A stretch of 64,000 bases of DNA, from IMG/VR virus record IMGVR_UViG_3300045988_151591, positions 34,841 to 98,840 of that record; one strand, given 5' to 3'. Below, piece after piece: positions 32,549 to 56,773 of this stretch (positions are counted from its first letter, which is position 1; each line of letters begins with the position of its first letter). The stretch comes from a virus. A program made the translations under genes and the position numbers. Below the pieces are notes generated by a model, which was not told the origin of the DNA, did no database searches, and was given only the letters and a program-made list of their open reading frames with translations.

Positions 32549-32907
32549 TGTGCGACTACGATATGTAGGCGGACGCAACACGACACCCCGACAACAACAT
32601 AATATAGGCCATAATGCAAAAACGTGAAACATATTGTTAGATTAACTGCGGCTCGCACGGCTTCATTCCCGAAGACTACCAACACTCTCGAACTTTCCAA
32701 TTCTATGAAGTGGACGGGAAAGGGAAGGGAGAACCGACGGGACCGCAGTTTTTTCGCTCAGACGCGGTGCGCCGAATGAGGCAACCGCACCGTGCAGCTC
32801 TCGCAGTTCTGACTCATGTCCGTACCACTAAGACAATTCTTAGTACATTTGTAGTCGAAAAAAGCAACAACAACATACATCAACCCCTAAAAACAGGATA
32901 ACAGAAT

Positions 32908-34701
32908 ATGTCACGCAACAAGAACAGAGTTACCAACTTACAGCAGCTCCAAGATCGTAGTGAGGAGCTGAAGCGCGATGGATATGTGGCCGTGTCGCCC
33001 TCTGCTTTCATCAATCCCAACAGCGGCGCACAAGTCTTCTCATGGAACGATTACGTCCGCTCCATGCTCTTCGAGACAGCCGGCATGACAGCGCAGGGCA
33101 GCTCGTCCACCTCATCGGGAGCACGACGACAGATTTCCACCATCTTCGCCTCCAGCGGCGGCGAGAACAAGGCCAAGCCCAACGGCGTGGGAACACCCGG
33201 ACTGGGCTACATGGAATGGGGCGTGGGCAACCGACTGCCCAACCTCGTCTGGATTCTCTCACGGATGTCGCCATTCACCGCTGCCGGCGTCGACTTCATC
33301 AAGAAGATACTCGTAGGCCACGGACCCTCGCCCAAGTACCACTACACCCAGTACGTAGGCGGCAACATCACCGAGAAATACATCCCCTACGCATCGGCTG
33401 GCACACTGCTCCGCGGACAAATAGCCGACCTCAAGGCACAGGAGGCAGCAGAACGTCAGGCACAACAACAGAACGGCGTAAGCGGCGACCCCGACGATCC
33501 TCTGCATTTCGACAGTCAGCAGACCGAAGGCCAGCCCAAGGACAGCGACGAGATGAAAGCCCTGAAGGATGCGCTCGCCAAATGGGAACAAACCAACCGC
33601 GAGGTACAGAAATTCATAAAGGACAACGACCTGATGCAGACCTTCCTCAACATGGCGGGCGACATGGCGCTCATGTCGCAGTGCTTCGTCGAGCTGCAAC
33701 TCAACCAGCGGCAACTCTCCGATGAGGGCAAGCCGGTACCCACCAGCCAGTGGACCCCCAAGGTCGTGGGACTGAAACACCGCAGCATCTTCACCACCCG
33801 ACTGGAGCGACAGGACTCCAACTATCGCATCAACTATGCCTACGTGTCGAACCAGTGGCTCGACCCCACGCAAGACCGCACCGCACAGTTCGCCGACCTC
33901 GACAAGAGTATCGCCGCAGTGCCCTATCTTCCCGCCGTGTCGGCAGTGAAAGACCTCCATGCAGCCGTGCGCCGTGCCCGTCAGCAGCGAGTGAGCCGCA
34001 AGGACCGCCCCACCCGCTTCATCATGTCGCCACGCGACTATGGCGGTCCCTACTATGCCGATGCCCTCTGGCATTCCATCTTTGCCGGAAGCATCTACGA
34101 GTATGCCTTCACCATTGTCGACGACCGACTCACCCGTAAGCGCAACTCCAACATCATCGGTCGCGTCATCTACATTCACCAGGAATATCTCAAGAACCTC
34201 TACACCCAGCAGGGCGACAAGAAGACCAAGACCATGGCGCAGCTTCAGCAGGAGGTGTTCAGCGACATCAACACGTGGCTCTCCAATCCCGACAATGCGG
34301 GTCAGGCTCTTATCTCTGCCGTGTTCACCGGCGCCGACGGCAAGGAGCACAAGGCATGGGAGATTGTGGAGATAGAGAGCAAGGCCAACTCGCAAGCGCA
34401 AGCCGAGAAGACCGAGCTGCAGGAAATCACAAGCATCATCTTCTTCGCCATGGGCCTCGACTCCAAGCTCATCGGCAACACCCCAGGCGACGCAACCTCA
34501 TCGGGCGGCACCGACCTCCGTGAGCGTTTCCTCGTCAAGCAGATACAGTTTGCCCCATTGCAGCAGCTCATGCTCCGAGCCTTGGAGGTAATCGACGATT
34601 TCAATGAATGGGACACACACCTCGAATGGCAGATAGACCGTGAGGTGCTTACCACCCTCGACAACTCGAAGACAGGCGTCAAGAAGCAGGAACAGGAGTA
34701 A
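32908..34701 (+). CDS. portal-like protein candidate (597 aa)
   Basis: Size and position at the head of a structural operon. No motif certainty. Confidence 0.35.
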   Translation: MSRNKNRVTNLQQLQDRSEELKRDGYVAVSPSAFINPNSGAQVFSWNDYVRSMLFETAGMTAQGSSSTSSGARRQISTIFASSGGENKAKPNGVGTPGLGYMEWGVGNRLPNLVWILSRMSPFTAAGVDFIKKILVGHGPSPKYHYTQYVGGNITEKYIPYASAGTLLRGQIADLKAQEAAERQAQQQNGVSGDPDDPLHFDSQQTEGQPKDSDEMKALKDALAKWEQTNREVQKFIKDNDLMQTFLNMAGDMALMSQCFVELQLNQRQLSDEGKPVPTSQWTPKVVGLKHRSIFTTRLERQDSNYRINYAYVSNQWLDPTQDRTAQFADLDKSIAAVPYLPAVSAVKDLHAAVRRARQQRVSRKDRPTRFIMSPRDYGGPYYADALWHSIFAGSIYEYAFTIVDDRLTRKRNSNIIGRVIYIHQEYLKNLYTQQGDKKTKTMAQLQQEVFSDINTWLSNPDNAGQALISAVFTGADGKEHKAWEIVEIESKANSQAQAEKTELQEITSIIFFAMGLDSKLIGNTPGDATSSGGTDLRERFLVKQIQFAPLQQLMLRALEVIDDFNEWDTHLEWQIDREVLTTLDNSKTGVKKQEQE

Positions 34702-34773
34702 CCCTCCCCTCCCTGACTTCCGTCCCGACAACAACATCTTTTTTTCACCCAGCACATAACAGCACAACACATC

Positions 34774-35883
34774 ATGATACTTTCCACCAATCAAGAACTT
34801 CGGCTTATCCTGCCCAGCAATGCCGTGGACGATATAGCCAACCTGCAGGGCGTGCTCGACAACAGCGAGAAGGACTTCCTGCAGGACAAGTTGGGCAAGC
34901 CGCTCTACACACGGCTCTGCGAATACTACACCACCCTGGGCGGCGACGGCTTCTATCAGCAGAAGACCGACGGATCCTATGCCAAGAAACCATGGAGCGT
35001 CCTCCTCAACCTCGCCCAGCGCATGGTGGTCAACGACGCCATGGCGCGATACGCCTACCAGCAAATCCTTTCGGTCAACGGCGCAGGCGTCAACATCGCC
35101 TCCTCTACCGATTACGACCCCGCCACAGAGATACTCCTCGACAAGGGAGTGGCAGGATATAGGATGGAGGCCATGGTGTCGCTCAACAACCTCTTGAAAC
35201 TCCTTGAAAACTGGGCAGTCAGCATCAACACGCCAGCCGAAACAGCCGCCCCGAAAGACGGCAGCGCAAGTACAGAAGTACCAAAGGGCGAAAGTACAGA
35301 AGTACCTGACGACGGAAAATCCGACATACCACAGGACGAAAATGCCGAAGCCCATACAGCTATCGAGGAGATAGTGCTGTTGTGGCAGGAGAGCAAGTAC
35401 TACTATCTGCACCACGACCTCCTCTTTCCTACGTGCAGCGTCCTTGAGCAGTATCTTAGCGTGCACGACAACCGCGACAAGTTTATCCGTCTGTTGCCCG
35501 ACATCCGCTACGTACAGGACGAATACATAGCCGACGTGTTCGGCGACGAGCTCATCGACCGTCTTCAGCATGCCGACGACCGCGACAAACTCCTCCGTAA
35601 GGTGCGCCGACTGATGACCGCCTACCTCGTGGAGCGAACCACCGTCATCGCCTTTGACAAGGCTACCCGACTGTTGGCGCACAACGAGTCCATCTCGCTC
35701 CGCGATTCCGTCTATCGCCTCCTCAATGCCGAGAAGCAGGCTCAGGAAGCCGCCGATAGCAATGCCTCCTCCTCCACTTCCACCACGACCGCCGCTCCCT
35801 CATCATCCGCTGCAGACAAATCCGGCGGCTACGAGAATAACCAGGAGGGCGGCAAGATATTCGTCACACCACTCATGTTCTAA
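34774..35883 (+). CDS. hypothetical structural protein (369 aa)
   Basis: ORF with an acidic central region and a Ser/Thr-rich C-terminus. Confidence 0.5.
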   Translation: MILSTNQELRLILPSNAVDDIANLQGVLDNSEKDFLQDKLGKPLYTRLCEYYTTLGGDGFYQQKTDGSYAKKPWSVLLNLAQRMVVNDAMARYAYQQILSVNGAGVNIASSTDYDPATEILLDKGVAGYRMEAMVSLNNLLKLLENWAVSINTPAETAAPKDGSASTEVPKGESTEVPDDGKSDIPQDENAEAHTAIEEIVLLWQESKYYYLHHDLLFPTCSVLEQYLSVHDNRDKFIRLLPDIRYVQDEYIADVFGDELIDRLQHADDRDKLLRKVRRLMTAYLVERTTVIAFDKATRLLAHNESISLRDSVYRLLNAEKQAQEAADSNASSSTSTTTAAPSSSAADKSGGYENNQEGGKIFVTPLMF

Positions 35884-35913
35884 AACCCCGACAACAATAA
35901 AAGACACAACAAT

Positions 35914-36990
35914 ATGAACAAAGAGCAAATCATTCAGATACTCACGCCGGCACTCAACACCCGAATGCTGACTGCCGAACAGAAAGAAGCCTTCGAGCAG
36001 GGACTGACACTGCTTGAAAGCGTGCCCAGCGCACAGGCTTTCGTGCGCGACTCGCATCGTTTCCGCGACTACCACCGCCGTGTGCGCCAGTTGATCACCA
36101 GCCTGCAGATTATCCCCATCCCCGAAATTGCCGAAGCCAAGCGCCACGTGGGCCGACCCACCAAGGAGGAGCAGGCACGATACAACGAACAGCAGAAGCA
36201 GAAAGCCCTCGACGAAGCCCGCCAGTCGCTCTTCCCCGAGGTGAAGCCCAACGTGGCCGTACAGCCACTCACCTATGGCGGTATCGTGGCCAACCCCAAC
36301 GGCGAGAGCATCGCCGCCACCATGCCCAACCTCGCACAGATACGTCCTTTCCTCAGTCCTGCCCTTCAACAGCGCGTCAATACCGTGCGCGACCTCCGCA
36401 ACGAGATGGCGAGCAAGGCCGAGCAAGCCAAGACGATGGCAGAAGCCAACGAGAAGTCGCAACAGCAGAACAAGGGCATCCTCTACACTGAAGCCGAGAT
36501 AGCGTTGCTCGCCACCCGTGCGACAGAGATAGAGAGCCACATCCTGCCCGATATTTACATGGCAGTGGACCGCGAAATGGGCGAAGTCTATCTCCGATTG
36601 AATCAGCGCAACGGCGACCCCGAATATATTGCCTATGTGGAAAAGACTTTCAGTTTGTCGCCACAGGAACTGCGTACCCAGCTCAAGCCCTTCTATGAGA
36701 AAGCACAAGAGCGCGACCCTCGTTTTGCCGTCAGCATAGCAGAGAAAATCGCTGCCGACCGACCCGAGGTGAAAGCCGCACGCGACAAGGCAGCCAAGCA
36801 CAAGGCCGAAGCTGATGCCATCATCAAGTATATCATCCGCAAGGACAAGCCAAGTACCAAGGCAAGGGTGAAGGGACTGAAGGAGCGTATCGACCGTTTG
36901 CGCCAGGAGTATGCCGACATCGTAACCGAAGACGAACTCACCGGCTACGAGGCCATCCTTACCAAGACCATCGCCGAAGCGGGAGTCTAA
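35914..36990 (+). CDS. hypothetical coiled-coil protein (358 aa)
   Basis: Lys/Glu/Ala-rich, scaffold-like. Confidence 0.5.
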   Translation: MNKEQIIQILTPALNTRMLTAEQKEAFEQGLTLLESVPSAQAFVRDSHRFRDYHRRVRQLITSLQIIPIPEIAEAKRHVGRPTKEEQARYNEQQKQKALDEARQSLFPEVKPNVAVQPLTYGGIVANPNGESIAATMPNLAQIRPFLSPALQQRVNTVRDLRNEMASKAEQAKTMAEANEKSQQQNKGILYTEAEIALLATRATEIESHILPDIYMAVDREMGEVYLRLNQRNGDPEYIAYVEKTFSLSPQELRTQLKPFYEKAQERDPRFAVSIAEKIAADRPEVKAARDKAAKHKAEADAIIKYIIRKDKPSTKARVKGLKERIDRLRQEYADIVTEDELTGYEAILTKTIAEAGV

Positions 36991-37027
36991 GATGTCGTTT
37001 TGTTTTTAGTGCTTATTTTAGTCAGAA

Positions 37028-37696
37028 ATGACTGGAAATTCTATCATAGAGAAGAGTCAGGATATGGAGAAGTCCGAAAAGTTTAAGGCATTGTGTATCG
37101 CCATCCTTGCCCAGAGCGGCAACTGCCAGGAGTCGCAACTTGCCTTTCGTGGCACGGAGAGCATACAGCAGATGTGCGCTGCGTGGCACAAGTATTGGCA
37201 CGGCATGATAACCGAAGTGCCACAGCAGGTCATGGCAGCTTTTCGTGACTTCTATCCTGACTATAAGAGCGAGATAAATGCTGCCGGCATCTTCTACAAC
37301 GAGGACTCGCCTACAGGCAATGTGCTCATCGGCGACAGCACAGAGACCATCCACCTCTATCATGCCCACACGGCCTATATCCTGGGCAACGCCCGTGTCG
37401 TGCTGCACAACATCGCCTCTGCCCTGGTTATGAATCCCGACTGCCATGTAGAGTTGCGCGACTTCTCACGGGCCACCGTCAAGGAAGGTCACGCCGTGGC
37501 ACGCAACCAGTCCCGACTGACCACCAATGCCTCTGCCGAGTGTTATGACATGTCGGTGGTCAACATCACAGCAGGCACACTCACCGACCATGGCCACAGA
37601 GCTGTCTACGCTTTCGGTAATGCCGTCGTCAACTCCTTCACCCGTCAGTTTATCTCTATATACGACAACGCTCAAGTAAATATCAAGAAACAATGA
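37028..37696 (+). CDS. hypothetical protein (222 aa)
   Basis: ORF. Overlaps the next gene by 4 bp. Confidence 0.5.
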   Translation: MTGNSIIEKSQDMEKSEKFKALCIAILAQSGNCQESQLAFRGTESIQQMCAAWHKYWHGMITEVPQQVMAAFRDFYPDYKSEINAAGIFYNEDSPTGNVLIGDSTETIHLYHAHTAYILGNARVVLHNIASALVMNPDCHVELRDFSRATVKEGHAVARNQSRLTTNASAECYDMSVVNITAGTLTDHGHRAVYAFGNAVVNSFTRQFISIYDNAQVNIKKQ

Positions 37697-40506
37697 ACTC
37701 ACATCTCACCATACTTATCAACGACCGACCTGTGTCGCTGCCCGATGATTTCTCTATCGATATAGAGGACCAGAACCCTGTGTTCAATGATAACGAGATG
37801 TTCGCCTATCCGTTTTCCATTCCGCTCGACGGCAACCGATGGCTGGTAAAGAACATCGATGACGTGCGGGCATCGTTTCGTGCTGTCAACATGGAGCATT
37901 TGCCTACGCGCATTCATGCCGACGGACTGCCCTTCCGCAACGGTACGCTCGTCATGCAGGATGCTGAAGAGATAAAGGACTCGCTCTCGATGAGCATTAA
38001 TGCAGGCAGACAGAGTTTCAGCGACCTCATCGGATCGCTCAACTGTCGTGACATTCCCATCAAGGATGAATTGATTATCGGCGAGAAGATAGGCAACGTA
38101 AGGGTAGACATCGAGAGCGACCCTGTTGTAAATGTCAGCGTATTCGTGGAGGGAGGAAAACATAAGGATGACGAGACTGTCACCCGAACCATCCATGCCG
38201 AGCACGTAAGCGTGAGTAAGGTGCTCGAACCGCAGGCGCTTGGCTTCTCCTATCCTGCATCGTGCCAGGAGTACACCACCAATATCCTTTATCCTTTACA
38301 CATGAAGGCCGATGCCAAGAGAAAGTCGTCACGATCCTACCCCAACGGCAATACAGTCAACGAGCCCGCCATCGCCAAGAATGGCGACTATATCAACACG
38401 TCGGCTGCCTATGGCGAGACTGATGGCGCGGGCCGTCCCGCAGCTTATTGCAACGCCCGTATCTGCTACAAGCACCACGGACTCGCAGACGATGGCACCA
38501 CATCGAGCGACGTTATTAGTACGAAGGAATGCAAGTGGACCAACGAGGATCTTTATCCCTATTGGGTGTTGGACGCACGCCGCCCGCAGTCGGGCATCTG
38601 TTTCTATGTACTCTATTTTCTCGACTGCCTGTTTCATCACCTGGGTGTCACCTTCGACAAGTCGGCACTGATGCAGATAGAGGATATGAAGCACCTCTGT
38701 TTCTTCACCACCGTTTGCGCCTACGACACCAAAGAGCATCCACATCACGGAACATACTACAAGAAGGACGACCCCGAAGTCATCGCCAAGAAAAAGAAGG
38801 AAGGCGAGATTAAGGAAGGATATTTCAAGAAGCAAGATCATATCAACTCCTGGTTGGAGTCGCGCGGTTGTGGTGGAAAAATCAACATCGTAAAGGCAGA
38901 GGACAAGACGGTCAACGAGCTCACCCTCACCACTAACGAAGGGACTTCCGAACACATACAGGTGGGAGAGACGACAAAAGAGGGCGGCAAGGTGACTGGT
39001 ATCAGCATCGAGGCGCAAATCTCTAAGTTCAACGTGCAGGCCAACGTGCTCTATATGGTGGCCAACAGCGACAACTTCCCCGATGAGAGTGTCAGCACGA
39101 TTATCTCATCCTTGGAGAGCGCCTTCGGCATCAAGTTTTCCTACGACTATGAGCAAAAGAAAGTCACGGCCTACCTCATCCGTGACGTGCTTCGCGAGAG
39201 TGGACAGCCAGCACGCACGTTCCGCGCAGACATTCATTCTATCATTCCCGTCAGCGAGAAGATAACGGGTGTACGTATGCGATACTCCGAAGAGAGCGAT
39301 GCCAAGGATCAGCAGCAGAACGTCAAGGACAGCCGCAAGAATAAAAATATGGGCTATGCCACCGATTACGACTATATCGACTATCCCGAACCGGGAAGTG
39401 GAGACAACGAAACGGTTTACGATCGAGATTACGTTGACTTCTTTCATAATTTAAGTTCTGGAGATAAAAGATGCTACATCGACCGCAAGACGGGCAATGC
39501 CTATCGCGTGAAGGTGAATGGCGACGCCACTACTACAGCCGACCTCAAACCTGTACTTTTCGAGGTAGGCCAGTACAAGGGTGTGGAGTATGGCGATTGC
39601 AGCGAGGAGAATGAAGACTTCATCCACGACATCACCATCGACTTCACTCCTGTGCCGTTCAACGATGTCAACTATTTCAAGGAGATAGAGGCTGCTTACG
39701 GCTCTCATACGGCAAAGTACTATGATGATTCAAAGACAACAACCTATGGTGTCGTTATCAAGGAAGGACAGCCCATCCTCTGCGCCTATGTCGACGAGGA
39801 AATGGAACATGAGTTTGTCGAGCAAATCATCAACCAGACCATCTCCTCGCCTTTCTGCGACTTCTATATGCAGCAGTCATTGAAACTCGTCGAGAGTTAC
39901 GACCCGTCAAACACCGAAGACGGCAACTCGCCTCTTCAAGACGATTCACGATGGGGATTTGCCTTGGCCATGATGCGAGGCGGCGGTACGAATGCAACCA
40001 CAGAGCCCTATGACTATAACTATGACCACTTCGGTACTTCCAAGTGGCGCACGGCAGCAGGCGAGTATGCTCTTGCTTGCGACTCTCTTGACATGATGGG
40101 CAATGTATTCGACTACAATGGTGTGCAGGAAGGCAGAGGCAAAGGTGAACGCTTCTCGCTCAAGATACGCGCTTTCAAAGAGCCGTCATGGCTCAGTAAG
40201 CCGGAATACAAGGATGTTTCTCTCTGCGACCCCGACGAGGTGGATGCCAAAGGCAACGTGATAACCAAGATACGCTCACGCGGTCTTTTTGATACCTTCA
40301 TTTTGCCCTACGCCTATTTTCTGCTTAACCGCAAGAAGTACATCATCCGCTGTTCGGCTTCTGTCGCACAGATAGCCGACATACCTAACCATTGGAAGAC
40401 GTGGTGGAACATCGGAGGTGTGAAATGTCTTATCGACAAGGTGAATACAACTATCACGGCTAAGGAAGGCATTGGAGAGGTAGAACTGACCGTCTATGCC
40501 CTGTAA
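37693..40506 (+). CDS. large virion/tail-associated protein (937 aa)
   Basis: Long ORF immediately upstream of the KS-ACP pair. No enzymatic motif recognised. Confidence 0.5.
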   Translation: MNSHLTILINDRPVSLPDDFSIDIEDQNPVFNDNEMFAYPFSIPLDGNRWLVKNIDDVRASFRAVNMEHLPTRIHADGLPFRNGTLVMQDAEEIKDSLSMSINAGRQSFSDLIGSLNCRDIPIKDELIIGEKIGNVRVDIESDPVVNVSVFVEGGKHKDDETVTRTIHAEHVSVSKVLEPQALGFSYPASCQEYTTNILYPLHMKADAKRKSSRSYPNGNTVNEPAIAKNGDYINTSAAYGETDGAGRPAAYCNARICYKHHGLADDGTTSSDVISTKECKWTNEDLYPYWVLDARRPQSGICFYVLYFLDCLFHHLGVTFDKSALMQIEDMKHLCFFTTVCAYDTKEHPHHGTYYKKDDPEVIAKKKKEGEIKEGYFKKQDHINSWLESRGCGGKINIVKAEDKTVNELTLTTNEGTSEHIQVGETTKEGGKVTGISIEAQISKFNVQANVLYMVANSDNFPDESVSTIISSLESAFGIKFSYDYEQKKVTAYLIRDVLRESGQPARTFRADIHSIIPVSEKITGVRMRYSEESDAKDQQQNVKDSRKNKNMGYATDYDYIDYPEPGSGDNETVYDRDYVDFFHNLSSGDKRCYIDRKTGNAYRVKVNGDATTTADLKPVLFEVGQYKGVEYGDCSEENEDFIHDITIDFTPVPFNDVNYFKEIEAAYGSHTAKYYDDSKTTTYGVVIKEGQPILCAYVDEEMEHEFVEQIINQTISSPFCDFYMQQSLKLVESYDPSNTEDGNSPLQDDSRWGFALAMMRGGGTNATTEPYDYNYDHFGTSKWRTAAGEYALACDSLDMMGNVFDYNGVQEGRGKGERFSLKIRAFKEPSWLSKPEYKDVSLCDPDEVDAKGNVITKIRSRGLFDTFILPYAYFLLNRKKYIIRCSASVAQIADIPNHWKTWWNIGGVKCLIDKVNTTITAKEGIGEVELTVYAL

Positions 40507-40535
40507 GAGTATTCTTTAATCAAACAAACATAATC

Positions 40536-41750
40536 ATGGATAGAAAAATATTAATCACAGGCACAGGTATCGTTTCCAGTCTTGGCAACGATACCTTTTC
40601 CGTCGCACAGAAGTTGGCAAATGGAGAGTGCGGTCTGCACCACGATCCCGCACGCAGCGAGAAAGGCTATCAGTCCGACCTGTGCGGAAAGATAAAGGAC
40701 CCGAACCCTTGGAAGTTATCTGAACTCACAAGGGCTCAACGGCAATGTTTTTCCGAACCGACCCTATATTCCTTATCTGCCGTCAATGAGGCTCTGATGG
40801 AAGCCAATATTCTTCCCGAGTTCTTGCAGTCTCACAATGTGTCTGTCATCGTCAGCAATGACTCTACGGCAGGAGAAAGCTATCAGGCAATGACCACTGC
40901 CATTACACAGCGCGACACCCGACGTTTAGGGGCGGCTGCAGTGTTTCGCACACTCAATTCCACCGTCAGCATGAACCTCGCCTCTATCTACGGACTGAAA
41001 GGACTTTCGCTTACCGTCAGCGGGGCTTGTGCCGGAGGAGGTCATGCCATTACTCTCGCCAAGATGCTTCTTGATACGCGCCAAACCGAAATGGTGATTG
41101 TCGTTGGCGCACAGGAGACTGGTCCCTTCTCCATGCTGTCGTTTGATGCCATGGGCGTATTCTCGCCAGACAAGGTGCAGCCTTTCGGCAAAGGCCGCAA
41201 TGGTCTGGCTCCTTCGGGTGGTGCTGCCTGTGTCATTCTTGAGCCTTCCGACAGCTTGCGTTTTGAGGATTATGAAGTCTCGCCCGTGGCAGAACTTTCC
41301 GGCTGCGGCTTCTCCACCAACGGCACCAACATCTGTACCCCGGATGCTTATCAGGAAGAAGTGGCAATGATTAAGGCCATAGAATCGGCAGGACTCGATG
41401 CAGGAATGATAGATGTACTCCTTGCCCATGCCACAGGTACAGAGCTGGGCGATGCTGCAGAGGCAGAAGCCATCGGAAAGGTATTCCCCGAGAGCCCTTA
41501 TATCGTAGCCACCAAGGGCATGACGGGGCACGAGTGCTGGATGGCTGGTGTATCGCAGGCCGTTCAAGCATCCATGATGCTCAACACAGACACTGTCTTC
41601 GGTGCGGCTACCACAGCCGAGAATGCTTTTCCCAAACTCAATCTCGTCATGCAGTCACGCGAGTACTCAGCACACCATATCCTCTGCAATGCCTTTGGCT
41701 TCGGAGGCACCAACTCATCATTCATCATCTCTAAATATCAACCATCATGA
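40536..41750 (+). CDS. beta-ketoacyl-ACP synthase (FabF/FabB-like KS)
   Basis: 'ITGTGIVSSLGN' N-terminus. Active-site Cys in 'TVSGACAGGGHAITLA'. His motifs 'LAHATGTELGD' and 'TKGMTGHECWMAG'. C-terminal 'NAFGFGGTNSSFII'. Confidence 0.9.
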   Translation: MDRKILITGTGIVSSLGNDTFSVAQKLANGECGLHHDPARSEKGYQSDLCGKIKDPNPWKLSELTRAQRQCFSEPTLYSLSAVNEALMEANILPEFLQSHNVSVIVSNDSTAGESYQAMTTAITQRDTRRLGAAAVFRTLNSTVSMNLASIYGLKGLSLTVSGACAGGGHAITLAKMLLDTRQTEMVIVVGAQETGPFSMLSFDAMGVFSPDKVQPFGKGRNGLAPSGGAACVILEPSDSLRFEDYEVSPVAELSGCGFSTNGTNICTPDAYQEEVAMIKAIESAGLDAGMIDVLLAHATGTELGDAAEAEAIGKVFPESPYIVATKGMTGHECWMAGVSQAVQASMMLNTDTVFGAATTAENAFPKLNLVMQSREYSAHHILCNAFGFGGTNSSFIISKYQPS

Positions 41751-41995
41751 ACAAAGAAGATATACGTCAGCGGGTGTTCAATATCGTTGAAGGCCTGCGC
41801 ACACCTTGGGCATCGACAGCAGAAGTGACCGACAGCGCTAACCTGCGTGATGATCTTGCTCTTGAGTCTATTGACTTTCTCGACCTCGTTCTTCAGACCG
41901 AAACCATGTTCCATATCAAGATTTCGCCAGAAGAGGCAAAAGACTTACAGCTTGTGTCTGATGTGACAGCTATCGTAGAGAAGAAAATGTCTTAG
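41747..41995 (+). CDS. acyl carrier protein
   Basis: 82 aa. 'DDLALESIDFLDLVLQTETMF' matches the ACP DLGxDSLDxVELVMxxEE helix-II motif, with a conserved Ser. The ATG overlaps the KS stop codon. Confidence 0.8.
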   Translation: MNKEDIRQRVFNIVEGLRTPWASTAEVTDSANLRDDLALESIDFLDLVLQTETMFHIKISPEEAKDLQLVSDVTAIVEKKMS

Positions 41996-42058
41996 CGACT
42001 TTCGCAGCCAAAAGAAAAATCTCAGCACATACATTCATCTCCTGTTTTATCTATAGAT

Positions 42059-43111
42059 ATGGCAAAGAATATTTTACTTACATCTGGTTCAATCCTTGCT
42101 GGCAACCCGGTTACTTTTACAATCTCGCCGTCAGTTCCAGATAATACACCTTCTTTTCATCGTGTCGTCGTAGAGGTCATGTTCGACAATGACGGCAGCT
42201 ATGATGTCATACAACTCAATGAGCCTGTCACCAAAGAGGGCACTGATGTATCGCTTGATGTATCGTCAGCTCTCCGTGCGGCACTCGACTCCTACGAATA
42301 TACTCCCGAGCCGACAACCTATCCTTTCGTGAGCTGGTACGTCCATGCCTACGATGAATATATGGATAGCAATGGTGAGATACATACCAATGTAGGCGAG
42401 GTGTTTTATCCTCAAAACCCCGACGAAACCGGCAATACGAACCTTCGCAGCATAGCGGGTGCTTTCTCTGATATGGTGCGCCTTCTGTCTGGACTCAGCA
42501 AGGGAGTCGTTTCGTTTACCCGAAAGCCGAACACATTGCCGCAACCCGTCGTTGTGGGTGACACCTTTATTTATACTCCATCATACGAGACAGAACAACT
42601 GCTCAGTAACAGTCCGACCCTGGTTCCTCCCACGTCTGTCTCTAAGGAGATTACGCAGGAAGGACTACAGACCGTCGGTACTCACCAACTTTATGCGCTG
42701 CCTGCTACAGAGGCGAGCAACCGTTACACCATACGCTTCATCAATCTGTTTGGTGTACTTGAGAATGTCAGTCTGCCGAAAGCCTACAGCCGTAAGATGG
42801 CGCTTACAACAGAATCGTATATTGTGGCAAAGCAGGAGACGTTCAACTCCTTCTCTCGTGCGTCGGTCAAGAAACAGAATGATCAAGAAACTTGGAATCT
42901 CACTACTGACCCGCTCGACGAGAATTGGCTCGACTGGTATCTGCACGAGTTTGCCATGAGCAAACACGCATGGATTTTATTGCACGGCATTTGGATTCCA
43001 TGCACCATTCTTTTGGAAGACGAGACCACTATCCAGGATGACACTAATACCAACATGTATGCTTTGTCGTTTAAAGTAGTGATCGATATTAATGGTTCAC
43101 TTCTACTCTGA
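42059..43111 (+). CDS. hypothetical protein (350 aa), tail-associated by position
   Basis: ORF between the ACP gene and the tail fibre. Confidence 0.5.
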   Translation: MAKNILLTSGSILAGNPVTFTISPSVPDNTPSFHRVVVEVMFDNDGSYDVIQLNEPVTKEGTDVSLDVSSALRAALDSYEYTPEPTTYPFVSWYVHAYDEYMDSNGEIHTNVGEVFYPQNPDETGNTNLRSIAGAFSDMVRLLSGLSKGVVSFTRKPNTLPQPVVVGDTFIYTPSYETEQLLSNSPTLVPPTSVSKEITQEGLQTVGTHQLYALPATEASNRYTIRFINLFGVLENVSLPKAYSRKMALTTESYIVAKQETFNSFSRASVKKQNDQETWNLTTDPLDENWLDWYLHEFAMSKHAWILLHGIWIPCTILLEDETTIQDDTNTNMYALSFKVVIDINGSLLL

Positions 43112-43140: not shown

Positions 43141-43183
43141 GCGAAGGTCATCGACTTTAGGGCTGTGTCCTTCGTTTTTTTTG
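43141..43183 (+). terminator. intrinsic terminator
   Basis: 'cgaaggtc...gtccttcg' stem followed by T8. Confidence 0.5.
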
Positions 43184-43281
43184 TATCTATGTGTCACCCT
43201 CCCGCGCCATGCTTTGTCCCTATCAAGAAACGTGTTTTCGGTAACTTTGCTACATCTAAAAATAAATAATCAAAAATCATC

Positions 43282-45597
43282 ATGGCAACAGAAGTCAAAA
43301 TTACGAATTATTGGATTTCGAGCAGTGCGCTCTATATCCAACTCAACGCAATGGGTGAGCCTAACTACATCCAGTGTAGCGTGGCGAGTGGTGCTTCTAT
43401 TCTATGCTATATGCAGGACATTGAGGGTCTGGGCTACGATGCCGGGCACAACTATCAGCGTTGGCCGTTAGTGGCTTATCCCTCTCTCTTTCCTGATGCA
43501 AAGGCTAAGTATGTTTACGTAGCCATTCCGCGCGTCAGCAATGGCGTCAACGGTACGGCAATGGTGGTATTCCCCAGCGAGCGCATTGACATCTACGGTA
43601 AGTCTATTGCATCTCCGGACAAGCAGGTGGGCAACGAGGACTATTACTATGTGTATCTGCAAGGAGAAATCTCTGAGGTCCTGACCAAAAATGTAGGTAA
43701 GGATGAGAACGATCAGGACATCATAGAAAAGTATCGTGAGTGGACTCTCACTGTGGAATACGGTTCTCTTGCCACCGACGAAGCGATAGCTTCCGGCGGC
43801 GAGGGTCAGTGGTGGAGATATGAGTCAGTACACGACACCATCAAGTTCCTGAAGATCATCTCTGTGGCAGCATTTACTACGCTCAAGGCAGCGACAGCCA
43901 CTATCGCCACCCTTTTCTTGAACGGACATAAAATCGTTGGCGTAGCGACAGAAAACACCGATGATACGTCAGCCAACAAAGTGGTTACTCCTGAGTTCCT
44001 TGGGCAGTTTGGTGTACGCCATTTCTTATCCAAAGAGAATGATGACACGGTAAACGGCATGATTACCTTTATCAAAGGACTGGTGAGCGAGGCTTTAGTA
44101 AAGCTGAACAGAGGTGCTTACTTTGGTAAGGGAGGAGCGTTGATAGACGAGGCAGGACGTGCCATCTTGGAGTCGTTACAGTCCATCGACTACGACAACG
44201 AAGCAGAGCAGGGTTTCGCTGTTAAGAAGGATAACGGAAAATATCACGCCTTCGTTACGAACCTCACCATCTGGGGCAAGGCGATATTCCACGAATTAGA
44301 TGTACGCAAGCTGTCTTATTCGGGAGGCAACTTCTATTTATCTGGAGCTGGTAGCAAGCTTATCAAAGTTGTGCCTGTCAAGGAATCGGTATCTGCTGAC
44401 GGTGTGATCTCTTGGGTAGAAACAACTGCGGATGATGCAGAATGCGCTGGCTGGAAATGCTATCTCTTAGCTGACAACGGAACTACTGCCACGATGAACT
44501 ACTGGCAGGAGGGCGACCAAGTGCGCTGTCAGACTATTGGCGAGATTGTGGCTGGTGGAGCATATAGTGATACAAGTAATAAGAGTTACTGGCGTACTAT
44601 TCCTGATGGTGGCGTATCTACGCAAAATGAGAAGATATACGGCACTAAAACGGAGACTTATCTTGACGAAGCTGGTAAGGAGCAGACGAGAGAAGAACAG
44701 GTGGAATTGTACGATGGTCAGGCGTTTGCTTGGATTGTCGTTGGCAAGCATTCCGAAGGCTTAGACGGATATACAGAGAAGAATGCGCCTGTTGAGATAA
44801 AGGGAGACCCTGCTGAGGGCGACACAATCGTGCTGGACGGCAACAGACATCGTAATGGCAATCTTGAGTACGACAAGACGGACAGGCAGAACGTGATTAT
44901 CCTTGAGACAACTGGCGACTATGCTCCTCGTATCGCTTGCTATGCTAATATCTCTGAGTACAAGCATACTATCACAAAAAGCGTAAATGGCGAGAACAAA
45001 GAAGTATCTCTGTCGGTATTCGAGACTTCACCGAAGGGTGGAACGAAAATCAATTCCTCACACTTTGAATTGATTTCGGATGACGGCAGTACTATTAATA
45101 TCATCAATTATAGAGGTGACTGGGTAGAAGGAAATACCTATCATAAGAACGACCAAGTAAATCACAATAATGCCGTTTGGGTGTGTGTTGCCAATTCAGA
45201 GGAGGACGTAACAGGTGAGCCTTCTGACGGCTCGACACAATGGAAAAAAGTTCTATCTGGAAGCAAAGGCGAGAAGGGAGACAAGGGCGAGGACGGCGTG
45301 GCTTATCAGATAATGATAACGAGCGATACGGGCACGGTGATGATTAACGGTTCGGGCGAAATGACGCTGAAGGCAACGCTGCTACGCAATGGCGAGGACA
45401 TAAGCGACACCGTGGGCAACAGCTCATGGTCGTGGTGGCGACAATCGGCTGATGCCGAAGATGATGCTGTATGGAATAAGCTGCATGAGGGGATTGGCCG
45501 GAACTGTCTTATAACACGTGACGACGTAGACAGACAGGCACAATTCGGATGTAGTGTGTGCGTATCAGATACAAAGACTATTAATAGTAACATATAA
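43282..45597 (+). CDS. tail fibre protein with short collagen-like motif
   Basis: 771 aa. 'SGSKGEKGDKGEDG' Gly-X-Y triplets. Beta-rich repeats. Confidence 0.6.
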   Translation: MATEVKITNYWISSSALYIQLNAMGEPNYIQCSVASGASILCYMQDIEGLGYDAGHNYQRWPLVAYPSLFPDAKAKYVYVAIPRVSNGVNGTAMVVFPSERIDIYGKSIASPDKQVGNEDYYYVYLQGEISEVLTKNVGKDENDQDIIEKYREWTLTVEYGSLATDEAIASGGEGQWWRYESVHDTIKFLKIISVAAFTTLKAATATIATLFLNGHKIVGVATENTDDTSANKVVTPEFLGQFGVRHFLSKENDDTVNGMITFIKGLVSEALVKLNRGAYFGKGGALIDEAGRAILESLQSIDYDNEAEQGFAVKKDNGKYHAFVTNLTIWGKAIFHELDVRKLSYSGGNFYLSGAGSKLIKVVPVKESVSADGVISWVETTADDAECAGWKCYLLADNGTTATMNYWQEGDQVRCQTIGEIVAGGAYSDTSNKSYWRTIPDGGVSTQNEKIYGTKTETYLDEAGKEQTREEQVELYDGQAFAWIVVGKHSEGLDGYTEKNAPVEIKGDPAEGDTIVLDGNRHRNGNLEYDKTDRQNVIILETTGDYAPRIACYANISEYKHTITKSVNGENKEVSLSVFETSPKGGTKINSSHFELISDDGSTINIINYRGDWVEGNTYHKNDQVNHNNAVWVCVANSEEDVTGEPSDGSTQWKKVLSGSKGEKGDKGEDGVAYQIMITSDTGTVMINGSGEMTLKATLLRNGEDISDTVGNSSWSWWRQSADAEDDAVWNKLHEGIGRNCLITRDDVDRQAQFGCSVCVSDTKTINSNI

Positions 45598-45621
45598 TAA
45601 TATTAAAACAAACAAACGATT

Positions 45622-46665
45622 ATGGCAAAAGTATTAGCTAATGGTCAGATTACTATCGTTGACCTCAATGACGGCAAGGCCGTTCAGTGTTTTACACAAT
45701 GCTCTAAGGGCGAGACTCAGATTTACACCCCCGACACGGGTGTGTACACTCCGAACTACTCGTCGAGTGAACCAAACGTGATAACAGCCCGTGTATATGT
45801 GACGGGCAGTGCTACAGACCAGGCTCCGACCTCGGCTTGTACGGGATGGTCGTGGAAGTTGGATGGTGTGGCTGCCACTCCTGTGAGCGGCAAGTCGTAT
45901 CAGCTTAACCTCGCCAGCAACATCGACAAGAACGGCAGCGTGAAGAACATCGAGTGGTCGTGCAAATATACTGACCCCGAAACTAAGGCTACGACAACGT
46001 GTATCGGCTACAAGACCATTTCGCTGGCTAAGAGTGGCGGTGCGCTTCAGACGGTGCAGATTGAGACTCCCGACGGCAACACGTTCGACTCGACCAACAA
46101 CAGCAATAAGCTGCGTGCTATAGCCAAGTTCTTCCGTGGCAACGTGCAGGACACCACCATGACATCAATGACTTGGGAGGTGCTGAATATCAGTGCAGGA
46201 ACATGGGACGCCGTGGCTTCGGGCAACGTGAGCACTTCGGGCGGCGTGAGCACTCTGAACGTGAGCGCCAATGACGTGCTTAACTTCCAGACTTTCCGCT
46301 GTACGGTGAAGGACGGTGCTGATACGGCCAGCGCTATCATCACGTTCTTCGATGCGAGCGACCCGTACGTGGTGGAGGTGTATTCGCTGACCGGCGACAA
46401 GATAGTGAACGGTTCGCAGTCGACGGAGCTTTACGCCCGACTCTGGAAAGACGGCAAGGTAGTGGAGGATGGTGCAGCGGTGAAGGCAGACAGCAACCAT
46501 GCCTCGAACTACATCTACAAATGGACGAAGTACAATGCCAGCGGTGTAGCCACGAACTGGAACGGTACATCAAGTGCGGTGAATGCTTCGAGCAAGCCTT
46601 ACGTCACGGTGTCCAACGCTGACGTGGCAGTGAGAGGCACGTTTACTTGTGAGGTGTCTAAATAA
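45622..46665 (+). CDS. tail fibre/Ig-like protein
   Basis: 347 aa. Thr/Ser/Gly-rich beta sequence. A terminator follows. Confidence 0.5.
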   Translation: MAKVLANGQITIVDLNDGKAVQCFTQCSKGETQIYTPDTGVYTPNYSSSEPNVITARVYVTGSATDQAPTSACTGWSWKLDGVAATPVSGKSYQLNLASNIDKNGSVKNIEWSCKYTDPETKATTTCIGYKTISLAKSGGALQTVQIETPDGNTFDSTNNSNKLRAIAKFFRGNVQDTTMTSMTWEVLNISAGTWDAVASGNVSTSGGVSTLNVSANDVLNFQTFRCTVKDGADTASAIITFFDASDPYVVEVYSLTGDKIVNGSQSTELYARLWKDGKVVEDGAAVKADSNHASNYIYKWTKYNASGVATNWNGTSSAVNASSKPYVTVSNADVAVRGTFTCEVSK

Positions 46666-46690
46666 GGGCACCTCACCCTTATTTTTTATT
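46664..46690 (+). terminator. intrinsic terminator
   Basis: 'aagggcacctcaccctt' hairpin plus 'attttttatt'. Confidence 0.5.
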
Positions 46691-46710
46691 AATAAAAAAA
46701 ATGAAAGAGT

Positions 46711-49353
46711 ATGGCAGTATTATTGGCGAGGGGCCAGATAACGATAGCGGCGATAAAGGATGGTGCGCCTGGTCCGCAAGGCAAGCCTGGCAAGGATGCC
46801 GTTTCTATTATTGTCGAAGACGCTCCGCTCGTTTTTGACACAGATGATAGTGGAATTGTACCTGTTAGCATATCAAAGGCTGCGAAGGTAAAGATAATGA
46901 AGGGTAACCTGAATATCTCTAATGAATGCAGCAATATTAGCTCAAGGGATGATTTGTGCGTAAATTGCAAATGTGGTGCAATACAGAAGGATGGATATAT
47001 CGAAGTATCTGTATCAGGCAGTAATATTGCAAAGAACGACGTGGTTATTGATGGTGTAAATCAAGGACAGGTTTCTGCAACATCAGGCTATGCGGTCGCA
47101 CAATTTGCTTACGCTGGTGTAGTCTATTTTGCGCAAGTTCCATTCTCGGTAAACGTGTCGAAGTATATGGGTAGTGTAAAGGTTACGGCAAAGCAGTATC
47201 AGTCGCAATTTAAGGCATTGGAGAACGACCTCAAAAAAAGCAATCCTACCGTTCTCAACGCCTACACATCTACTATCAAGCAGACAGCGAAGGAGATTAC
47301 TCTCAGTGTGACTCAGAGCCAGCAAGGACGGCATAACCTACTGCGAGATACGGCACTGACGAGGAAGGGTGATATATATTATTGGACCGGCCTCTTCCAG
47401 CCTACGATAACACAGGGCGTGAACGGCCATAATGCCATCCGCTTCTCGGTGACGGGTGACGGAACGCCTCAGTACAAGGGACTTTTCTGGGGAAATCACG
47501 TCAACGGCATCGCTGTGAAGAAGAACACCGACTACACATTCTCGGCATGGATAAAGTGCGACACGAAGGACTTACAGGTTTGTTCAGAAGTTTTCAAGAT
47601 GGCTGCGCTGAATGGCGATAGAGGGGACAGAATTACTGCCACCTCGGGTAACATGTACTGGCTGACAAAGGAGAACGAGGTGAATCAGTGGAGGCAGGTG
47701 AACTACACCTTCAATACGGGCGACGCAGAGTTTATCGAGGTGAATATCTTTGTCTACAATGGCATAACCGTGGACGGAACCTTTGGTTATACTGTCTCGG
47801 GTAACGGATGGATATGTATGCCAATGCTTGAGGAGGGGAGCGAGTACACAGGCTGGACTCCTGCGGAAACGGACTACGACTATGTGGGAGGAAACCTTAT
47901 GGAGGACACGATGACACTGACCAAATCGTCTGACAACAGCAATCTCCAGTTTGCCAGCGGACTGATTATGTTTGAAAAATACGAAGGCTGCTACGGAATA
48001 TTGTACAACAAAAACAACTCGGCAGAGTCTCTGTTCACAGAAGCCTTGCAATATAAATTTCCAACAAGAGCTACCCTTTCTGGGCAGGCGAGAATAGTAA
48101 AGAAGCAGGACTATGTGTTTTCCTTCGTTGCCAAGGGCAGCGGGAACATCAATGTTTTTCTCTATGGAGACAGCGTTCATGCAAATGTATATACAGAAAC
48201 CTGCGAAGGAAACGAATATACGGACGGCAGGGCTGACGGATACGCACAGCTCGCACTCACATCGACCTATAAGCGGTACTGGGTGCATTGGCGAATAGAG
48301 GACTATACTGGCGAGGGAGCAGAGGTAATTCCAGACAAGATGCTGATACGTGTTCCAGGAGATACTGAGGCTTGGGTGACAAAGCCGAAACTGGAGGAAG
48401 GCGCACAACTTACTGATTATACAGAACGGAAGACCGACCTCATAGACAGAGCCACAGCCAAGGCGGCAGGACTTGAGATTACGTCGAGCGGAGTAACTCT
48501 GTATGGCGAGAAAATCAAGGTGGAGAACACACTCTCTACCGGTCAGACTACGACAGCCGCACTCTTTACAGACGGAGCCATCAATGCGGCTCTGATACTG
48601 GCGCAGATGCTTACATCGCAAGGACACAACGGGCAGATGGTAAGGATAGCCGATGGCCTTATCAATATCTACGGCAAGGCAGGAACTGCAAATATCCGCT
48701 TCGGTCTGAACAGTTCGGGACAGGCCGTGCTGTCGTACTACGACGACAACGGAAACTTTCTCTACGACCTCGGCCCTACTGGTGTCGCCTCGCTCAGCAA
48801 GACCGACGCGAAGATAACTTCTGCGCAATATATCAAAGCAGAGGACGCAGGACTGACGACTCCACTCGGAGAGAATGTAGACCTGCCGTGGGTTGACACC
48901 ACCAAGTCGTGGTACACGGCAACGAAGGACAACAACTACATTCTTTTCGTTAAGGGTGCGACGGGTAAAACGACAACCCTGTATCGTTACTCAGCACCAA
49001 GAGTGAACGGAAAAATAGTAGCCGACTCGGCAAACGGATTGGGTACATACGACCTTGCGAGTGCTGCCGACGGAAGGACGTTTACGAGCCGCACAATGGT
49101 GAAGAATGGTGCGCTGACAAATCTTGCGGATGGCGTGTTCCTTACTGCGGATGCCACGGTCTACGACAACACAAAGCTGGTGCCTTCCATCAAGAAGGGG
49201 CAGAGCGTGACAAGGCCATCCTTCTATGTACAGATAGCCACCTTCAGCGCTAAGTACATGACACTCGCAGGGCATGGAAGAATCTATTCGATACAGACAG
49301 AAACCACTTTCGGTAATCTTGACGTAGGAATAATGAGCAACAATAATTACTAA
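46711..49353 (+). CDS. tail fibre / receptor-binding protein with N-terminal collagen-like motif
   Basis: 880 aa. 'GAPGPQGKPGKDA' near the N-terminus. Confidence 0.6.
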   Translation: MAVLLARGQITIAAIKDGAPGPQGKPGKDAVSIIVEDAPLVFDTDDSGIVPVSISKAAKVKIMKGNLNISNECSNISSRDDLCVNCKCGAIQKDGYIEVSVSGSNIAKNDVVIDGVNQGQVSATSGYAVAQFAYAGVVYFAQVPFSVNVSKYMGSVKVTAKQYQSQFKALENDLKKSNPTVLNAYTSTIKQTAKEITLSVTQSQQGRHNLLRDTALTRKGDIYYWTGLFQPTITQGVNGHNAIRFSVTGDGTPQYKGLFWGNHVNGIAVKKNTDYTFSAWIKCDTKDLQVCSEVFKMAALNGDRGDRITATSGNMYWLTKENEVNQWRQVNYTFNTGDAEFIEVNIFVYNGITVDGTFGYTVSGNGWICMPMLEEGSEYTGWTPAETDYDYVGGNLMEDTMTLTKSSDNSNLQFASGLIMFEKYEGCYGILYNKNNSAESLFTEALQYKFPTRATLSGQARIVKKQDYVFSFVAKGSGNINVFLYGDSVHANVYTETCEGNEYTDGRADGYAQLALTSTYKRYWVHWRIEDYTGEGAEVIPDKMLIRVPGDTEAWVTKPKLEEGAQLTDYTERKTDLIDRATAKAAGLEITSSGVTLYGEKIKVENTLSTGQTTTAALFTDGAINAALILAQMLTSQGHNGQMVRIADGLINIYGKAGTANIRFGLNSSGQAVLSYYDDNGNFLYDLGPTGVASLSKTDAKITSAQYIKAEDAGLTTPLGENVDLPWVDTTKSWYTATKDNNYILFVKGATGKTTTLYRYSAPRVNGKIVADSANGLGTYDLASAADGRTFTSRTMVKNGALTNLADGVFLTADATVYDNTKLVPSIKKGQSVTRPSFYVQIATFSAKYMTLAGHGRIYSIQTETTFGNLDVGIMSNNNY

Positions 49354-54325: not shown

Positions 54326-54538
54326 TTGCAAAGTCAAACAAATAAAACATATAAAATAATGAAGTACACAGAATTTCACCGAAGAATCAAGGCCAAGGGC
54401 TGGAAGTTCGACCACGCCGAAGGCTCGCACTACTTTTACACCAAGGGCGGAAAGCTCTCGCCCCCTGTCCCCTTTCATGGGGCAAAGGAGGTGCCCGAGC
54501 CGTTACGGCGGAGCATAGCGCGAGCGATGGGAATTTAA
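54326..54538 (+). CDS. hicA: HicA-family mRNA interferase toxin
   Basis: 'KYTEFHRRIKAKGWKFDHAEGSHYFYTKGGK...VPFHGAKEV' matches the HicA/YcfA signature. The likely true start is the internal ATG 'MKYTEF' (~54359). A TAccTTTG promoter motif lies upstream. Confidence 0.75.
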   Translation: MQSQTNKTYKIMKYTEFHRRIKAKGWKFDHAEGSHYFYTKGGKLSPPVPFHGAKEVPEPLRRSIARAMGI

Positions 54539-54606
54539 CAGAAGAAAGAGGAAAGGGGCGCGCCCCTTTCCTCCATCATAATAAACGATATAATATATAT
54601 AAGGAT

Positions 54607-56461: not shown

Positions 56462-56483
56462 CCATTTTAAAATCCTCGAAGAT

Positions 56484-56762
56484 ATGAAGACAATCACCGC
56501 AACCCCTCAGACCATCACAGCCGCCGCAGTACGTCGCGCCCTGGCTCAGTGTCTCACCCTCGCCGCCACATACGGCGCACAGCGCACCGCCGCAGCTCTG
56601 AGAGCTGCACGCCGTTTCGCCATCCTCTCCGCTGCTTGGCTCCGTGCCTCGCATGAGTTTTTCGCCCAGGATGGCGACCCTATCCGCTGCACAGGCTGGC
56701 AGCTCGTCGGCTTCAACCTCGCCGCCGCTGCCGTTGTCGTATTACTCAGCATTAAGTATTAA
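56484..56762 (+). CDS. hypothetical protein (92 aa)
   Basis: Ala-rich ORF. Confidence 0.35.
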   Translation: MKTITATPQTITAAAVRRALAQCLTLAATYGAQRTAAALRAARRFAILSAAWLRASHEFFAQDGDPIRCTGWQLVGFNLAAAAVVVLLSIKY

Positions 56763-56773
56763 CCATTTAAGAT

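Follow-up and report, generated by a model that had tools for sequence, protein, structure and literature searches.

A β-ketoacyl-acyl carrier protein synthase (KS) and an acyl carrier protein (ACP) are encoded side by side in tailed-phage DNA of a ~100-kb human-gut lineage. They lie within the window, by which we mean the whole 64,000-nt stretch analysed here (positions 34,841-98,840 of IMGVR_UViG_3300045988_151591; coordinates are window positions). Judged by sequence, their nearest relatives with a known cellular context are the KS1 and ACP1 proteins of Bacteroidota aryl-polyene/flexirubin-type clusters, and the pair was apparently captured from a bacterial outer-membrane-lipid gene cluster. 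We see an even chance that KS and ACP form an active, host-dependent condensing module acting on envelope-lipid synthesis in the infected cell. The distribution of the pair shows it to be accessory cargo of the phage lineage; that it is not a part of the virion belongs to this reading. Reprogramming of host lipids was one of three roles put forward in an earlier annotation made from the DNA letters (the original prediction), and would be the one to favour.

The synthase, the carrier protein and their bacterial relatives

The two genes follow one another on the same strand.

40536..41750, + strand: KS, a 404-aa FabB-like elongating β-ketoacyl-ACP synthase (open reading frame (ORF) list, Pfam, alignment to FabB structures)
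41747..41995, + strand: ACP, an 82-aa acyl carrier protein (ORF list, PF00550, phrog_5934, alignment to solved ACPs)

KS matched PF00109 (E 9.9e-27, 94.6 bits) and PF02801 (E 5.4e-20, 72.0 bits; cutoff 20.8). When it was aligned to Vibrio cholerae FabB (4XOX), Cys165 in SGACAGG fell on the catalytic cysteine, His298 in HATGT on the first histidine, and Lys327 and His332 in ATKGMTGH on the lysine and second histidine. The NAFGFGG segment, with Phe387 and Phe389, aligned to the gating-Phe loop. Cys165, His298, Thr300, Lys327, His332, Phe387 and Phe389 were invariant in 55 distinct phage sequences that diverge to 59% identity, and the median dN/dS was 0.118 (NG86 method, sequence pairs with dS 0.1-1.2). 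The two domains, the alignment and this invariance bear out the 404-aa FabB/FabF-type enzyme with an intact triad that had been proposed for this gene. KS is predicted to be a catalytically competent condensing enzyme and presumably forms a homodimer, as do FabB and the FabB-like synthase ApeR. No second, Cys-less KS was found that could make up a type II polyketide synthase KS-alpha/CLF pair, KS being the sole ketoacyl-synthase match among window ORFs of at least 55 aa.

The ACP start overlaps the KS stop as ATGA, and both this coupling and the attachment serine of the original prediction were upheld. ACP matched PF00550 (E 1.1e-4, 22.8 bits; cutoff 20.8) and phrog_5934, 'acyl carrier protein' (5.5e-8). 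Ser41 in LALESIDF aligned to the serine of the DSL motif in solved ACPs, Glu40-Ser41-x-Asp43 was invariant in 42 distinct sequences, and the median dN/dS was 0.128. The protein scored below every NCBIfam ACP cutoff (48 vs 66 bits) and is thus divergent; against Escherichia coli AcpP it reached 23 bits. Invariant catalytic residues together with a dN/dS of ~0.12 indicate that KS and ACP are maintained, enzyme-like proteins under purifying selection. Their GC contents (0.53 for KS, 0.46 for ACP) lie within the range of the neighbouring genes.

The FabF/FabB label given to KS earlier held for the family but not for either equivalog, and the nearest relative is KS1. The top NCBIfam model was FabB, yet KS scored 188.3 bits against a cutoff of 630 for the FabB equivalog NF005935 and 181.3 bits against 493.75 for the FabF equivalog TIGR03150. 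FabB (KAS I; 4XOX, 1FJ4) was likewise the best match among solved structures, with the triad, Lys328 and the Phe392 loop all aligning and a similar length of ~404 aa. The shortfall from the cutoff indicates that KS is not a FabB orthologue, and it differs further in having its own ACP and in lying outside any fab operon.

Relatives were sought in one genome per bacterial species. Full-length KS relatives at 38-43% identity came almost entirely from Bacteroidota, and the stand-alone relatives nearest the phage clade in a whole-library HMMER search were 36-45% identical. The context of these genes is exemplified by the cluster of Segatella albensis DSM 11370 (locus L130), where Pfam identified a ketoreductase (KR), KS1, an O-methyltransferase, ACP1, an LPLAT acyltransferase (Lip_A_acyltrans), a FabZ-like dehydratase (DH), a 4HBT thioesterase (TE), KS2, ACP2 and KS3. 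In Terrimonas and Galbibacter, translations read by eye, without Pfam confirmation, point to two additional cluster genes, for an ammonia-lyase and a halogenase-like flavoprotein. The KR-KS1-ACP1-LPLAT cluster is of aryl-polyene/flexirubin-type architecture. Across the 79 best chromosomal Bacteroidota loci, KR lay directly upstream in 65, and ACP1 and LPLAT lay downstream in 62-63.

Phage KS was 42% identical over its full length to the KS1 of S. albensis and of Galbibacter sp. (L072), scoring 278-294 bits, but only 24-31% identical to KS2 and KS3. The best match of phage ACP was ACP1 (34% identity, 5e-10). The KS-then-ACP order is also shared, the two genes being adjacent in Galbibacter, Terrimonas and many Bacteroidales, as are the FabB-like type and motifs such as TKGMTGHECWMAG. 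Unlike the KS1 clusters, the phage has no KR, LPLAT, DH, TE, KS2, KS3 or second ACP; its KS has a shorter loop after FDAMG than KS1, and its ACP carries Glu-Ser in place of Asp-Ser. As comparators, KS1 and ACP1 are known from the genes of their clusters and their function is putative.

Eight loci from Chitinophagaceae and related Bacteroidota metagenome-assembled genomes (MAGs; L073, L078, L082, L087, L094, L104, L110 and L123) carried KS1-ACP1-LPLAT, and tblastn probes found no KR, DH, thioesterase or ACP2 there. KS1-ACP1-LPLAT may be a functional sub-module in its own right.

ApeR is a FabB-like homodimeric KS, split from the ApeO-ApeC heterodimer and described as dispensable but raising the throughput of the aryl-polyene pathway; its E. 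coli mutant is reported to accumulate late intermediates (PMC8358021, PMC8253772). KS1 and both groups of phage KS (see below) scored best on the FabB model and KS2 and KS3 on PRK09185, a division that mirrors the split between ApeR and ApeO-ApeC. ApeR (7F27, 4EWG) resembles phage KS in being a FabB-like, stand-alone elongating synthase and exemplifies the kind of step that the phage might supplement. Its Bacteroidota counterpart, KS1, adjoins the KR of the pathway, whereas no KR (ApeQ) lies beside the phage gene. In ApeR of Acinetobacter baumannii, Tyr135 stacks the aryl group (PMC8358021), and this residue is not found in phage KS either. Phage KS is therefore best filed, from its sequence, as FabB-like and KS1-related and not as an ApeR orthologue.

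Partner enzymes were missing from the phage DNA. Pfam found no phosphopantetheinyl transferase (PPTase), FabD, FabG, FabZ, FabI, thioesterase or acyltransferase among the ORFs of the 64-kb window, and precomputed Pfam annotations showed none in the 10 kb beyond each window end, which brings the DNA covered to ~84 kb of the ~100-kb genome. Nor was a KR or any other aryl-polyene cluster gene seen near phage KS in the window or flanks. Host components would therefore be needed, in agreement with the earlier statement that the pair lacks a nearby acyltransferase, KR, DH or PPTase and would have to recruit host fatty-acid synthesis (FAS).

Distribution and setting of the pair in the phage lineage

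The following features surround the pair.

32844..32851, + strand: Bacteroidota-type -7 motif (TACATTTG), 64 nt upstream of p597 (consensus match only)
37028..37696, + strand: p222, a small protein overlapping the start of p937 (its sequence type co-varies with KS-ACP)
37693..40506, + strand: p937, a conserved phage protein upstream of KS (ORF list; followed by p350 in sisters without KS)
40507..40535, + strand: left spacer of 29 nt, from p937 stop to KS start (no terminator, no + strand TAnnTTTG)
41996..42058, + strand: right spacer of 63 nt, from ACP stop to p350 start (no terminator-like hairpin)
42059..43111, + strand: p350, a conserved phage protein downstream of ACP (widespread uncharacterised Caudovirales family)
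43159..43171, + strand: terminator-like hairpin and T-run past p350 (consensus match only; candidate end of the unit)
43242..43249, + strand: next TAnnTTTG motif, 40 nt upstream of the first tail-fibre gene (motif scan)
43282..49353, + strand: tail-fibre and tail genes p771, p347 and p880 (PHROG, CBM domains)

With p937 as the probe, 80 loci were retrieved. Among these, all phages with a p937 at least 69% identical to that of the window had the order p937-KS-ACP-p350. By contrast, 20 sister phages (p937 45-53% identical) had p350 after p937 at a distance of 15-70 nt, with neither KS nor ACP. These KS-minus phages keep p597 (72-75% identity) and p358 (70-75%), and in both are as near to the window phage as those whose KS is 65% identical. 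The KS-minus loci are mosaic when set against window 37028-43111 (L202, L209, L213-L219, L225-L233). Identity to the window phage drops from 58% in the KS+ phages with a 65%-identical KS to 25% in KS-minus phages for p222, from 79% to 46% for p937 and from 56% to 45% for p350. From these sharp differences we conclude that KS-ACP travels with a particular p222-p937-p350 cassette. Within this first group, the more KS has diverged, the more p350 (rho 0.84) and p597 (rho 0.76) have too; together with the local GC content, this is consistent with an insertion of long standing that was passed on along with its neighbours.

An exhaustive HMMER search and tree revealed a second group of phage-borne KS, ~40% identical to window KS (38-45%). 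Its members are on ~100-kb contigs of the same broad lineage, two of which are distant p937 relatives (L220, L223), and they retain all catalytic motifs. Here the gene order is reversed, ACP then KS, and the site differs from that of the window pair. In L236 (7744-9236; 3300028887_000090) ACP-KS directly follows the tape-measure protein (TMP) gene and lies upstream of a primase-like gene, whilst in L242 (7717-9308; 3300011989_000009) it follows small ORFs. Downstream of the group-2 pair, ~1 kb is free of ORFs; next come the gene for a membrane protein of 130-136 aa and then the primase-like gene. In all 80 loci taken from around the primase-like gene, six KS-minus contigs among them, KS and ACP were absent from the TMP-primase site, and the ORF-poor gap past the TMP gene in the window held no remnants of either.

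As related genomes hold KS-ACP at either of two sites and many relatives lack it altogether, we regard it as accessory cargo. The pair is not present in all phages that share the structural module, as a core virion component would be, and its patchy presence among syntenic relatives is what is found for morons. The original prediction had the pair in a phage structural operon, of which it is not a fixed element; it is absent from sister phages sharing its flanks and sits elsewhere in the related group.

The gap in question (13817-14710) is an ORF-poor 0.9 kb of 32% GC between the tape-measure and primase-like genes of the window. Within it, ~120 nt (about 14091-14214) form a core that the lineage has conserved, and there was no Rfam match. 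The gap lies where two modules may meet and could serve as an origin or in regulation.

The KS+ phages are widespread. A KS search of metagenomes gave 5,370 matches, and the 120 listed were 59-95% identical to window KS, many of them on contigs of 90-140 kb. IMG/VR held 58 loci with this KS, an identical KS sequence was present on 15 contigs and an identical ACP sequence on 151. The order ~600 aa, DUF6712, ~360 aa, ~220 aa, ~935 aa, KS, ACP, ~350 aa and tail fibres was conserved on contigs from many independent samples, and p937-KS-ACP-p350 recurred on about 58 of the IMG/VR loci analysed and on ENA/Logan contigs from many samples. This conserved order excludes a chimeric assembly join, a possibility that had been raised for the segment. 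Public MAG bins holding KS+ contigs are labelled Prevotella sp. or Candidatus Segatella violae (NCBI), and Prevotella/Segatella genomes, including human-gut MAGs, encode the KR-KS1-ACP1-LPLAT cluster. The host is probably Prevotella/Segatella. For an isolated phage of this lineage, or its description among candidate gut phage families, we found nothing on point in the literature.

In 50,697 reference phage records, megablast found no DNA-level relative of the 10-kb region, and tblastn of KS gave matches of at most 40% identity only, the best being MT837464. Two apparent precedents were rejected. MT837464.1 (L244) is bacterial DNA with NusG-KR-KS1 from an aryl-polyene cluster resembling those of Prevotella, and NC_049343.1:22406-33041 (L331, 'Escherichia phage 500465-2') is E. 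coli fabB with its chromosomal flanks, the record closing with mnmC, fabB and flk. The apparent hits being mislabelled bacterial DNA, we found no genuine counterpart in these records, and the pair is as unusual for a phage as was first supposed.

We found no published description of a phage KS+ACP unit. The gene calls themselves are not new, as automated pipelines already annotate a '3-oxoacyl-ACP synthase' and an 'acyl carrier protein' here; newly described, as far as we found, are the accessory distribution, the two sites, the KS1/ACP1 ancestry and the conservation pattern. Phage ACPs of phrog_5934 (for example from Erythrobacter, Alteromonas and Rhodobacteraceae phages) are likewise small ACPs of tailed phages, treated as auxiliary or moron genes, and lone ACPs of this kind are a precedent from marine phages; in comparison with those, which are listed as ACPs, window ACP is distinguished by being coupled to a KS and inherited with it as a unit. 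The 'Flandersviridae' of gut Bacteroidota also encode host-derived lipid enzymes, but these belong to the isoprenoid pathway, and that report mentions neither KS nor ACP (PMC8008677).

The immediate setting of the pair matched the earlier description in that the spacers (29 and 63 nt) fall within the 30-60 bp gaps given for it to within a few nucleotides. Of the flanks described, the downstream tail-fibre and tail genes were confirmed by PHROG (phrog_2929, phrog_35697 and phrog_5073, tail fiber; phrog_3267, tail protein, 2e-59), but the 937-aa protein called virion-like has no detectable family. For p937, p350, p222, p358 and p597 there was no Pfam or PHROG match, and a PDB profile search was also empty. 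The AF2 model of p937 had a pLDDT of 27; p350 is mostly beta structure without an acyltransferase-like fold. The most conserved protein of the module is p597, with a median pairwise identity of 96% among KS+ phages.

Since a sigma-70 promoter scan is uninformative for Bacteroidota, the Bacteroidota -7 motif TAnnTTTG was used. It is enriched in the window (53 matches vs 35 expected). No + strand copy flanks KS-ACP or occurs anywhere between 32844 and 43242, and the motif at 32844, as the only one before 43242, is the candidate promoter of the p597..p350 unit. No terminator-like hairpin flanks KS-ACP either, the first on the + strand following p350 at 43159. At the level of consensus matches, p597..p937-KS-ACP-p350 thus appears to form a single transcription unit of ~10 kb, with the fibre genes lying beyond its end. 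The pair had been placed in the tail-gene operon, and by these scans that placement would need correcting. Having no promoter and terminator of its own, KS-ACP would differ on that point from a classical moron, which is a weak distinction drawn from motif scans.

GC-rich blocks (0.55-0.58) lie at 32000-38000 and 56000-60000 against a genome average of 0.49, and GC3 reaches 0.76 for p597/DUF6712/p358. No Rfam RNA family was found in the window.

Proposed function and competing explanations

In the mechanism we propose, host AcpS or another PPTase would phosphopantetheinylate apo-ACP and host FabD would load malonate onto it. Next, phage KS would join malonyl-ACP to a primer that is an acyl group or resembles one. 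Host KR and DH, possibly with a host LPLAT-type acyltransferase, would carry the chain through to completion and delivery. In this way the production of a specialised envelope lipid, or of acyl chains generally, would be kept up or diverted in infected Prevotella/Segatella. Expression of the pair would be tied to the ~10-kb p597..p350 unit and not to a promoter of its own.

Few phage auxiliary genes for lipid metabolism are known, and in none of the published cases that we found is the condensing unit complete, with a KS and its own ACP. The pair draws attention to a little-studied envelope-lipid pathway of Prevotella/Segatella, with its KR-KS1-ACP1-LPLAT core, and would offer a natural minimal KS/ACP pair for probing the roles of KS1 and ACP1. 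If the phage does modulate this pathway, infection would be tied to the outer-membrane lipids, oxidative-stress tolerance and biofilm of a major gut genus. As sister phages with and without KS occur in nature, and the pair is found at two insertion sites, the question lends itself to a direct test.

Several points weigh against this reading. The substrate, product and timing that it assigns to KS-ACP are all inferred, and at 42% identity to KS1 the function could have changed. In a neighbour-joining tree the nearest neighbours of window KS were the other phage-borne group, with the KS1 clade slightly further away, so that the phage clade may branch either inside the Bacteroidota KS1 clade or next to it, which leaves more than one donor lineage possible. 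The position of ApeR Tyr135, with sequences read by eye, is Leu in phage KS (FRTLNSTVS) and Met in Segatella KS1, hence an aryl-polyene substrate is not indicated; the proteobacterial ApeR structures (7F27, 112 bits; 4EWG, 101 bits) also score below FabB (4XOX, 166 bits). The host assignment is based solely on MAG binning labels. Finally, both insertion sites adjoin very large, presumably virion proteins (p937 and TMP), and KS-ACP co-varies with the p222-p937-p350 cassette type, which a purely metabolic gene need not do.

The alternative closest in chemistry is a general booster of FAS, in which a spare FabB/FabF-AcpP pair sustains ordinary phospholipid synthesis with no link to a specialised pathway. 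Condensation is one of the steps that control type II FAS. By name, FabB/KAS I is the best match in both NCBIfam and PDB, and where ApeR has its aryl-stacking Tyr the pocket has an aliphatic residue (Leu), FabB likewise having Met. Such a role is nevertheless hard to square with a KS so far under the FabB (188/630) and FabF (181/494) cutoffs and much nearer to KS1 of the clusters, where it scores 278-294 bits against a maximum of 166 for solved housekeeping enzymes, and the dedicated, divergent ACP, at 23 bits from AcpP of E. coli, suggests a channel apart from the housekeeping carrier. We think this booster role unlikely. A trivial origin, whether as a phage-host chimera of assembly or as a decaying hitchhiker gene pair, would have a parallel in the bacterial KS genes mislabelled in phage collections (MT837464, NC_049343). 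It would have to account for identical junctions on dozens of independent ~100-kb contigs from many samples, tight spacers of 29 and 63 nt, GC in the local range, and a dN/dS of ~0.12 with invariant catalytic residues over a clade diverged to 59% identity; its probability is in our view close to nil.

Two further explanations give the pair a role in the particle or in the state of the carrier cell. An acyl or polyketide group could be placed on a virion protein (p937, p350, the fibres or TMP), or KS and ACP could themselves be packaged, with a benefit for penetration of the Bacteroidota outer membrane. In one specific form, an acyl or short polyketide group would be made late in infection and transferred to p937, TMP or p350, the lipidated component then breaching the outer membrane. 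Virion lipidation would explain both the insertion sites, immediately past p937 in group 1 and past TMP in group 2 (L236), and the co-variation of the pair with p222, p937 and p350 sequence types, and KS-ACP, without a terminator or -7 motif of its own, appears to be co-transcribed with p937 and p350. A product that ended on the virion would represent a novel type of particle modification in phages. However, sisters with an orthologous p597-p358-p937-p350 do entirely without KS-ACP, no acyltransferase, thioesterase or ligase for a transfer was found in ~84 kb, p350 has no acyltransferase-like fold, and the strict conservation of catalytic residues fits an enzyme and not a building block of capsid or tail. 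The accessory distribution and the missing acyltransferase argue against an obligatory lipidation role; we hold modification of the virion to be distinctly improbable, and the specific late transfer a shade less probable again. The remaining proposal is that the pair alters surface lipids against superinfection or against progeny adsorbing to debris, brings an oxidative-stress or biofilm gain to a carrier host, or sequesters malonyl-ACP or PPTase against a host response. Cargo that alters the cell surface is classically found between tail genes, as with lom and bor of lambda. ParA-like, HicA/HicB-like and several Xre-type genes in the lineage are compatible with a carrier state. Published work places aryl-polyene lipids in the outer membrane and ascribes to them protection from oxidative stress and promotion of biofilms (PMC8253772; PMC13532178). 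Yet no independent promoter motif or terminator lies beside KS-ACP, unlike in typical morons of repressed prophages. We also know of no defence system targeting this chemistry (PADLOC was not searched), and we rate the proposal as little probable as the late transfer.

Other genes of the lineage

Tailed-phage genes in the window include those for a 1616-aa TMP, a head-maturation protease and a primase-like protein, and Pfam further identified a GH108 endolysin, ThyX, guanylate kinase and DNA methylases. At 24114-25022 (+) lies the gene for a complete LysR-type regulator (HTH_1 and LysR_substrate), which is unusual cargo for a phage.

At 54359-55014 (+), a HicA toxin (59 aa) precedes a protein of 135 aa whose Pfam match to UPF0150/HicB is only faint (E 0.0076, under the cutoff), and several Xre-type helix-turn-helix regulators lie nearby. 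Beyond the right end of the window are a ParA-like ATPase (AAA_31/CbiA; L328:14461-15333) and an NAD-dependent DNA ligase (L328:10848-12368). The ParA-like ATPase, the ligase and the toxin-antitoxin pair, with no integrase seen so far, hint at a plasmid-like carrier state.

Investment in DNA modification is heavy overall, with an N6/N4 methylase at 2895-3797 (-), a PAPS-reductase-like gene at 5109-5957 (-), a D12-class adenine methylase at 29772-30599 (+) and a Dcm-type methylase just outside the window (L325/L326). In one KS+ relative, a gene for bAvd, the accessory variability determinant of diversity-generating retroelements, was found downstream of the tail fibres (L007:21014-21224), which suggests that some members of the lineage carry such a retroelement.

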